Assembly (NCBI GenBank): GCA_041855665.1
Contig: JBHAEP010000015.1
Span: 1 to 30,154 of the forward strand
Direction: 5' to 3'
Length of the DNA stretch: 30,154 nt
From: Candidatus Nanosynbacteraceae bacterium
GTDB taxonomy: Bacteria > Patescibacteriota > Saccharimonadia > Saccharimonadales > Saccharimonadaceae
This document shows positions 3,216 through 3,303 of this stretch, in pieces. Every line of letters starts with the position of its first letter. The stretch's first letter is position 1. The notes under the pieces were generated by a model. The model had not been told where the DNA came from. It searched no databases and saw only the letters and a program-made list of their open reading frames with translations. The position numbers were made by a program, and so were the translations under genes.

Positions 3216-3268
3216 TAAAAGAAAGCTCCCAGCACAAGTCTTTCGACCCGCGTCGTCGGGAGCTATCT
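3216..3268 (-). ncRNA. Putative ~53-nt antisense small RNA (long hairpin with GAAA tetraloop and U-tract)
   Basis: Minus strand: AGCTCCC-GACGA-CGCGGGTC-GAAA-GACTTGTG-CT-GGGAGCT-TTCTTTT. The inner stem needs three G-U pairs, which form only on the minus strand. It begins ~7-11 nt after the -10. Confidence 0.55.
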
Positions 3269-3274
3269 GATCCC

Positions 3275-3303
3275 AATATACCAGACTCCAACCAAAATGT
3301 CAA
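3275..3303 (-). promoter_or_regulatory. Antisense sigma70 promoter embedded in coding frame
   Basis: Minus strand: TTGACA (3303-3298), 17-nt spacer ending in TGG, TATATT (3280-3275). Confidence 0.7.

Follow-up and report, generated by a model that had tools for sequence, protein, structure and literature searches.

The minus strand at positions 3303-3215 of the window (the whole 30,154-nucleotide stretch analyzed here) probably holds a self-contained small RNA gene in the linker behind an LPD3 domain, a member of an uncatalogued family whose likeliest role is that of a cis-antisense silencer of the module in which it lies. The elements of this unit and of the plus-strand gene that hosts it are as follows.

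2-1300, plus strand: TraG/VirD4/TrwB-type coupling-protein-like ATPase of type IV secretion, upstream of the polyvalent gene
1585-3210, plus strand (open frame 1573-3210): polyvalent-protein gene in frame 1, 541 aa, with an N-terminal domain, HEIGH, and LPD3
2860-3192, plus strand: LPD3 (PF18798), 34.2 bits
3197-3691, plus strand (open 3179-3691): the same gene continued in the +1 frame, with the last LPD3 strand, the linker, and the tail
3197-3200, plus strand: TTTT run with one extra T, giving a +1 frameshift; the LPD3 frame ends at TAA 3208-3210
3194-3223, both strands: perfect 30-nt palindrome TTCTTTTATACCATTAATGGTATAAAAGAA, forming hairpin 2 (13 bp) and encoding FFYTINGIKE
3303-3298, minus strand: -35 hexamer TTGACA, the reverse complement of codons aaT GTC AAa (N-V-K)
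3297-3281, minus strand: 17-nt spacer ending in TGG, an extended -10 element (TGn) with its TG at 3283-3282
3280-3275, minus strand: -10 hexamer TATATT, the reverse complement of AAT ATA (N-I)
3268, minus strand: predicted transcription start, the A of CAGA, 7 nt past the -10
3264-3224, minus strand: hairpin 1, predicted RNA body and terminator stem, 41 nt, 10 bases past the -10
3223-3215, minus strand: U-rich tract UUCUUUUAU, directly after hairpin 1, the reverse complement of the C-terminal LPD3 codons I-K-E

A minus-strand unit within a polyvalent-protein gene

The host gene belongs to the polyvalent class by its several unrelated domains and its type IV secretion neighbor, and its frame is now broken. 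A HEIGH zincin motif is present, an LPD3 profile matched amino acids 430-540 with 31.1 bits (cut-off 27), and the 150-aa tail of the +1-frame continuation is without a known domain. With its LPD3 domain, zincin HExxH motif, and type IV secretion neighbor, the locus resembles the polyvalent proteins of Iyer et al. (PMC5512222). The linker peptide ESSQHKSFDPRRRELSDPNIPDSNQNVK is read from the plus strand in frame 2. The genome of the window comprises 73 contigs and 624 kb, DNA of the window is present in pig and oral metagenomes, and related loci come from Candidatus Saccharibacteria.

The N-terminal domain of the polyvalent protein (window 1585-2230, aa 1-215, NPMLDDYHVGIRSVEDIKTWEE...YSSYPIQNGGFVSTS...) gave no Pfam match. 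More than 80 proteins contain segments with 55-76% identity to it, fused to portal, Peptidase_S78, DUF2213, MuF-C, LPD, or protease domains, and it seems to be a strongly conserved polyvalent-protein domain that has not been catalogued. The polyvalent gene is separated from the core genes by an ORF of 412 aa (3782-5020), which also has no Pfam match and contains 84-nt periodic repeats (3977/4061). Between this ORF and the convergent tyrS gene (5089-6294) is a near-perfect 29-nt palindrome flanked by T runs (5046-5074), which looks like a bidirectional terminator. Farther along the window, two adjacent genes on the minus strand (15373-15843 and 15960-16490) are each directly preceded by a copy of a 42-nt direct repeat (15840-15881 and 16487-16528, 83% identical), possibly a leader or regulatory sequence that the genes share as paralogs.

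The original prediction described a TTGACA-17-TGG-TATATT promoter, a hairpin, and a tract on the minus strand; all of them lie where it had put them, and sequence tests support its reading of a complete promoter-hairpin-terminator unit. Hairpin 1 is built from an 8-bp outer stem (AGCUCCC...GGGAGCU) and an inner stem capped by GAAA, and it folds with -23.0 kcal/mol (z = -4.7 against dinucleotide shuffles). The 57-nt RNA body contains four G-U pairs, and the minus strand folds more stably than the plus strand (-26.1 vs -17.9 kcal/mol). When the same peptide was recoded synonymously, none of 300 versions was equally stable (z = -3.7). With the predicted 3' end at the U-rich tract, the RNA would be ~50-55 nt long. 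Matches of at least 11 of the 12 promoter positions number four in the window, where Markov-1 simulations give 0.6, and only 7 of 12,046 41-nt windows fold with -23 kcal/mol or better. The 624-kb genome contains 70 strong promoter sites, mostly intergenic, from which it follows that the organism uses the same promoter consensus. A strong promoter with an immediate strong hairpin and a U tract occurs only three times in these 624 kb, each time antisense in a polyvalent gene. Chance does not account for the promoter and hairpin of the window.

Other identities for the element were considered. A mobile repeat was rejected, the genome being without any other copy of the unit, as was a small minus-strand peptide, the predicted RNA having neither an AUG nor a ribosome-binding site. 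The Rfam 15 covariance-model scan matched no family at the unit.

The TTCTTTT tract of the original prediction is present, but it doubles as the 5' arm of the 30-nt palindrome, which had been overlooked. Hairpin 2, formed by this palindrome, has -13.5 kcal/mol (z = -6.8) and may be a second terminator. Because the U tract is also a palindrome arm, the two hairpins stand back to back, and together they give an 86-nt fold of -37.7 kcal/mol (z = -7.1). The palindrome is imperfect in the relatives, and the TAA at 3208 that stops the LPD3 frame falls inside it. The gene had been taken as a stop-free frame, which is correct locally but does not hold for the gene as one intact frame. The homologues read GDNK-x-(F/L)Y-x-IN-x-IK in a single frame (P0002 reads ...GDNKTFYTINGIKESPLVQGEPRSRWELSTDTIPNKDGNVKF), and comparison with the DNA of the related locus L004 (AAG ATT CTT TAT vs AAG ATT CTT TTA T in the window) locates the lesion as one extra T in 3197-3200. 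A programmed +1 frameshift was therefore rejected, as all homologues are read through in one frame and the shift is not shared. A contig from a second sample covers 3175-3349 with zero differences, which makes a one-off assembly error behind the frameshift and palindrome unlikely, the support coming from contigs of one study and not from raw reads. The protein gene of the window is decayed by a +1 frameshift, with the RNA unit intact.

The extra T also makes the palindrome perfect; three relatives (L003, L004, and L005) have an imperfect inverted repeat. The extra T and the perfect palindrome would fit slippage or a templated quasi-palindrome correction. Logan contigs from three other samples have breaks around 3115-3181, near the palindrome.

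Codons, promoter, and RNA fold across related loci

We read the codons at the linker motif x-I-[PS]-Q-x-x-x-N-V-[KN] in 26 LPD3-linker loci, comprising the window, two contigs encoding homologues, 16 GTDB genome loci (Saccharibacteria and Clostridia), and seven loci from IMG/VR; 24 of the 26 are non-redundant. TTGACA is found at the homologous position in 20 of the 26. Codon usage in the 24 non-redundant loci, with the background in the same genes, was as follows.

Ile as ATA: 21 of 21, background 0.36
Val as GTC: 19 of 19, background 0.13
Ser as AGT: 11 of 11, background 0.21
Asn as AAT: 14 of 14, background 0.60
Gln as CAA: 13 of 14, background 0.60
Pro as CCA: 10 of 12, background 0.33

Binomial P values for this bias run from 1e-2 down to 1e-17, although both they and the locus counts overstate independence because the loci are related. 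On the opposite strand the same codons spell TTGACA-17-TATACT, TATAGT, or TATAAT, and most Clostridial and phage copies add the Gram-positive extended -10, TGTGn; the Clostridial spacer ends in TGTGG or TGTGA, from the codons CCA/TCA and CAA. The spacer sequence otherwise varies freely, and the hexamers, the 17-nt spacing, and TGTGn are constant. One locus (L009) has a different peptide (EKST) and still carries TTGAC, shifted by one base, and the conservation therefore resides in the DNA and not in the protein. Strong promoter matches at LPD3-homologue loci, counted by gene orientation, are antisense in 21 cases and sense in two. At the amino-acid level, the linker motif (S/N)I(P/S)Q...NV(K/N) is the shadow of a TTGACA-17-TATACT promoter in reverse. 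The invariant codons, set against their background, and the L009 locus bear out this reading of a common linker form, which the original prediction had put forward.

Behind every linker promoter, a long outer stem begins ~7 nt past the -10, at YAGA, a context kept at the start distance in alignments A5 and A6. The stem encloses one to three inner hairpins and leads into a U tract, which reads the final LPD3 codons, (K)IKE, in reverse (UUUUAUUUU in A5). In alignment A5 (13 sequences), 91% of cells are paired, compared with ~46% when the partners are slid, and 14 of the 25 pairs show compensatory changes, a value reached by none of 500 shuffles; the stems covary, as would be expected from the original prediction. 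Of the 24 loci, 20 fold better on the minus strand than on the plus strand, and the minus-strand stems include 53 G-U pairs, each of which is an A-C mismatch in the mRNA. The G-U pairs and the U tract fit the minus strand only, in agreement with the earlier assignment of all signals to one strand. Synonymous recoding with codons of the same gene destroys the folds (median z = -3.5), so that the downstream stems also outperform the recoded controls that had been proposed for them. Depending on the locus, translation of the hairpin motif GGCTCAAAGGCC gives GSKA, GLKGP, or AQRP, and the motif thus occurs in all three codon phases. We take these comparisons to show that the predicted promoter, structure, and terminator are under DNA- or RNA-level selection on the minus strand within coding sequence.

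Relatives of the window type share this architecture with other stems and with the stable tetraloops GAAA, UUCG, and GUAA. YUNR loops, which are typical of antisense recognition, account for 25 of 61 hairpin loops against 11.7 expected, with one related motif dominating the count, and this weakly suggests loop-loop pairing via YUNR. The Clostridial units have a conserved CUUUGA/YUNR loop, and the window RNA has a GAAA loop instead. An Rfam 15 scan of eight related loci returned only tRNAs and chance matches.

Domains that precede the units

Antisense promoter-hairpin units occur in phages from IMG/VR, in Clostridia, and in Saccharibacteria, and further units in the LPD3-linker genes follow extra LPD3 copies or PBECR3. 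We scanned IMG/VR with the promoter pattern alone, thereby avoiding selection by LPD3. Most of the 82 matches (66) were ordinary intergenic promoters, and the 16 used were those in the right frame inside giant antisense ORFs, 13 of them non-redundant. All 13 follow LPD3 (seven), PBECR3 (two), or MuF-C (four); six of the LPD3 calls were made by Pfam, and that of L034 only by our own LPD3 profile. Domain maps of five giant ORFs, two of them from the genome of the window, place units after LPD3, PBECR3, and MuF-C only, with no unit after ART-PolyVal, LPD38, PBECR5, LPD23, or metallopeptidase. The LPD3, PBECR, and MuF-C domains were defined by Iyer, Burroughs, Anand, de Souza, and Aravind in 2017, who treat MuF-C as a PBECR domain and predict PBECR and MuF-C to be BECR-fold RNases or RNA binders (PMC5512222). 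By these sequence comparisons, the units are shown to be co-inherited with three effector domain families and to be specific to certain domains. The expected widespread, domain-tied unit occurs behind LPD3, PBECR3, and MuF-C, the very families that had been named.

The nuclease-like character attributed to LPD3 found no such backing. The AF2 model of LPD3 (pLDDT 90.8) is a soluble alpha+beta domain of ~135 aa that matches only other viral LPD3 models (TM 0.7-0.85). Its fold gave no significant match among solved PDB structures (no E below 0.03), its sequence no match in the PDB, and comparison with the PBECR3 and MuF-C profiles by hhalign yielded probabilities of 0.1-0.3%; a single LPD3 copy had a sub-threshold match to PBECR2 (E = 0.014). 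LPD3 as a BECR nuclease or RNA binder is thus unsupported by PDB fold, PDB sequence, and profile comparisons alike.

Elsewhere in the genome of the window, two further polyvalent genes have between them five more antisense promoter sites, and two of these sites passed the strict hairpin and U-tract screen. The two giant polyvalent ORFs concerned lie at 165-4286 of contig C37 (L150) and 836-4435 of contig C72 (L151), both cut by contig ends, and contain LPD3, ART-PolyVal, PBECR3, and LPD38. The linkers at their antisense sites read NIAQxDxNVN or NIPQTDENIK, and C72 has two antisense promoter sites in tandem, 150 nt apart. Among 201 genomes sampled from the family, only three were found to contain LPD3. 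Collections of cultured phages and of plasmids, searched with DNA and with protein, returned no matching copy and thus offer no model system. In two Clostridial loci (L012, 2227-2406, and L020, ~2430-2535), the ends of polyvalent genes are followed at once by tRNA genes that lie antisense to them and have the same consensus promoter.

Possible action of the RNA and comparison with known systems

We propose that the RNA would be made constitutively from a promoter that is close to the housekeeping-sigma consensus and has an extended -10, and that it would start ~7 nt later. Termination of the ~50-55-nt hairpin RNA would be intrinsic, at a U tract that corresponds to the final LPD3 codons in reverse, and the RNA would pair with the mRNA at the end of the domain. 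This pairing would lower or cut expression of the module, in the manner of OOP or the 3'-overlapping type I antitoxin RNAs, and a potentially harmful effector module would be kept silent in the carrier cell. Since the predicted RNA is fully complementary to the mRNA at the domain end, antisense pairing is the simplest action, and antisense control fits at least as well as an RNA that inhibits, guides, or is cut by the domain. Against antisense control, a regulator of the whole gene need not sit only behind RNase-type domains, the domain specificity hints at a link to domain activity beyond control of the mRNA alone, and the window has a GAAA loop without the Clostridial CUUUGA/YUNR loop. A broader proposal, which we consider less likely than not, is that LPD3, PBECR3, and MuF-C domains travel as a domain plus a linker-encoded antisense RNA that is the antidote or partner of a toxic RNA-targeting domain.

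It seems unlikely that the RNA is instead a partner of the adjacent domain, acting as a type III-antitoxin-like RNA, a cofactor, or a decoy substrate with only incidental complementarity to the mRNA. An abundant compact RNA would then bind LPD3, PBECR3, or MuF-C in the producing cell and neutralize or load it. The restriction of the units to these three domains speaks for such a role, as do the predicted BECR-fold RNases or RNA binders among them (PBECR and MuF-C, PMC5512222) and the GGC-N-UUUGA-GCC hairpin that recurs across codon phases in LPD3- and MuF-C-linked units. The same hairpin, however, stands behind two folds without detectable homology, and recognition of the RNA by the adjacent domain is disfavored for that reason. 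The RNA bodies are also very different from one another (one to three inner hairpins, with tetraloops in the Saccharibacteria type), LPD3 is without detectable nuclease or RNA-binding similarity, and an antisense single-copy layout is unlike that of ToxI arrays.

Retention of the unit in a frameshifted gene, and its identical sequence in a second sample, would also suit an RNA that acts in trans against related phages or conjugative elements entering the cell, by pairing with their homologous polyvalent mRNA, the unit being kept after decay of the protein gene because the RNA blunts incoming effectors. We regard this as improbable, since it is based on one decayed gene, the genome is without a second copy or a target-like sequence, and the other polyvalent genes of the genome have different RNA bodies. 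That there is no RNA gene at all, and that the pattern is a recombination or shuffling signal, a by-product of protein constraint, or a set of hairpins acting on the sense mRNA (by ribosome pausing at a domain border or as a signal for the +1 shift), could draw on the mosaic nature of polyvalent genes (PMC5512222), on a plus-strand fold of the hairpins that also reaches -30.2 kcal/mol, and on the frameshift at the foot of the palindrome, but it is highly improbable given that conservation covers exactly both hexamers, the 17-nt spacing, and TGTGn, beside a variable spacer, that the G-U pairs and U tract fit the minus strand only, that the homologues are in one frame, and that the folds are lost on synonymous recoding.

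Under antisense control of the module, a close precedent is the OOP RNA of phage lambda, a 77-nt antisense RNA transcribed from pO, complementary to the 3' end of cII, that suppresses CII (PMC5869508). Like OOP, the linker unit would give a short, phage-borne countertranscript that consists of hardly anything beyond a constitutive promoter and an intrinsic-terminator hairpin and overlaps the 3' part of a coding sequence, and it has what the sequence of an antisense small RNA should contain, its own promoter on the opposite strand and a stem-loop with a U tract soon after the start. OOP sits at a gene end, whereas the linker unit sits inside a continuing reading frame, and the OOP promoter imposes no conserved protein motif, whereas that of the linker unit does. 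OOP is also one locus in one phage group, and the linker unit is a repeated, domain-tied module across phyla.

The type I antitoxins of txpA/RatA and bsrG/SR4 in Bacillus subtilis are antisense RNAs that overlap the 3' ends of their toxin genes, and the toxins are small hydrophobic peptides. The linker units share with these systems a structured antisense RNA, here predicted, from a strong promoter, convergent with and overlapping the 3' end of its partner and moving together with it. They differ in that the partner is a soluble, putatively harmful domain of 115-140 aa (LPD3, PBECR3, or MuF-C), usually within proteins of 1000-3000 aa. A type I assignment was rejected, the partner being a soluble alpha+beta domain in a large protein and not a small hydrophobic toxin. 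In type III systems (ToxIN, CptIN, and TenpIN), an RNA is paired with an RNase-type protein in mobile elements, and antitoxins of the ToxI type are tandem repeats upstream on the same strand that are processed by the toxin. This pairing of RNA and RNase is the analogy drawn in the original prediction; the linker element differs in that it is antisense, occurs singly, and brings its own promoter and terminator. Type III was likewise rejected, as neither the window nor the genome contains direct repeats of the unit.

The description of polyvalent proteins by Iyer et al. covers proteins only; the terms "linker," "antisense," and "small RNA" do not appear in its text (PMC5512222). A full-text literature search found nothing on linker-embedded antisense RNA units. 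The antisense linker-unit family is uncatalogued, being absent from Rfam 15 and from the literature searched.

A conserved "protein" motif can thus be the shadow of a promoter on the opposite strand, and annotation of giant phage and plasmid effectors therefore misses a layer of small RNA genes. RNA databases would be extended by one missing family, and the unit is a compact natural cassette of promoter, RNA, and terminator that accommodates a protein-coding sequence on its other strand. Polyvalent proteins, whose regulation and self-protection are unexplained, gain a concrete and testable control element tied to predicted RNase-type domains. If the broader proposal is true, a domain with its antidote or partner RNA would represent a novel class of RNA-protein conflict modules concealed in coding sequence, spanning phages, conjugative elements, Firmicutes, and candidate-phyla bacteria, and such modules would explain how carriers tolerate these effectors and why the genes are shuffled at their linkers.
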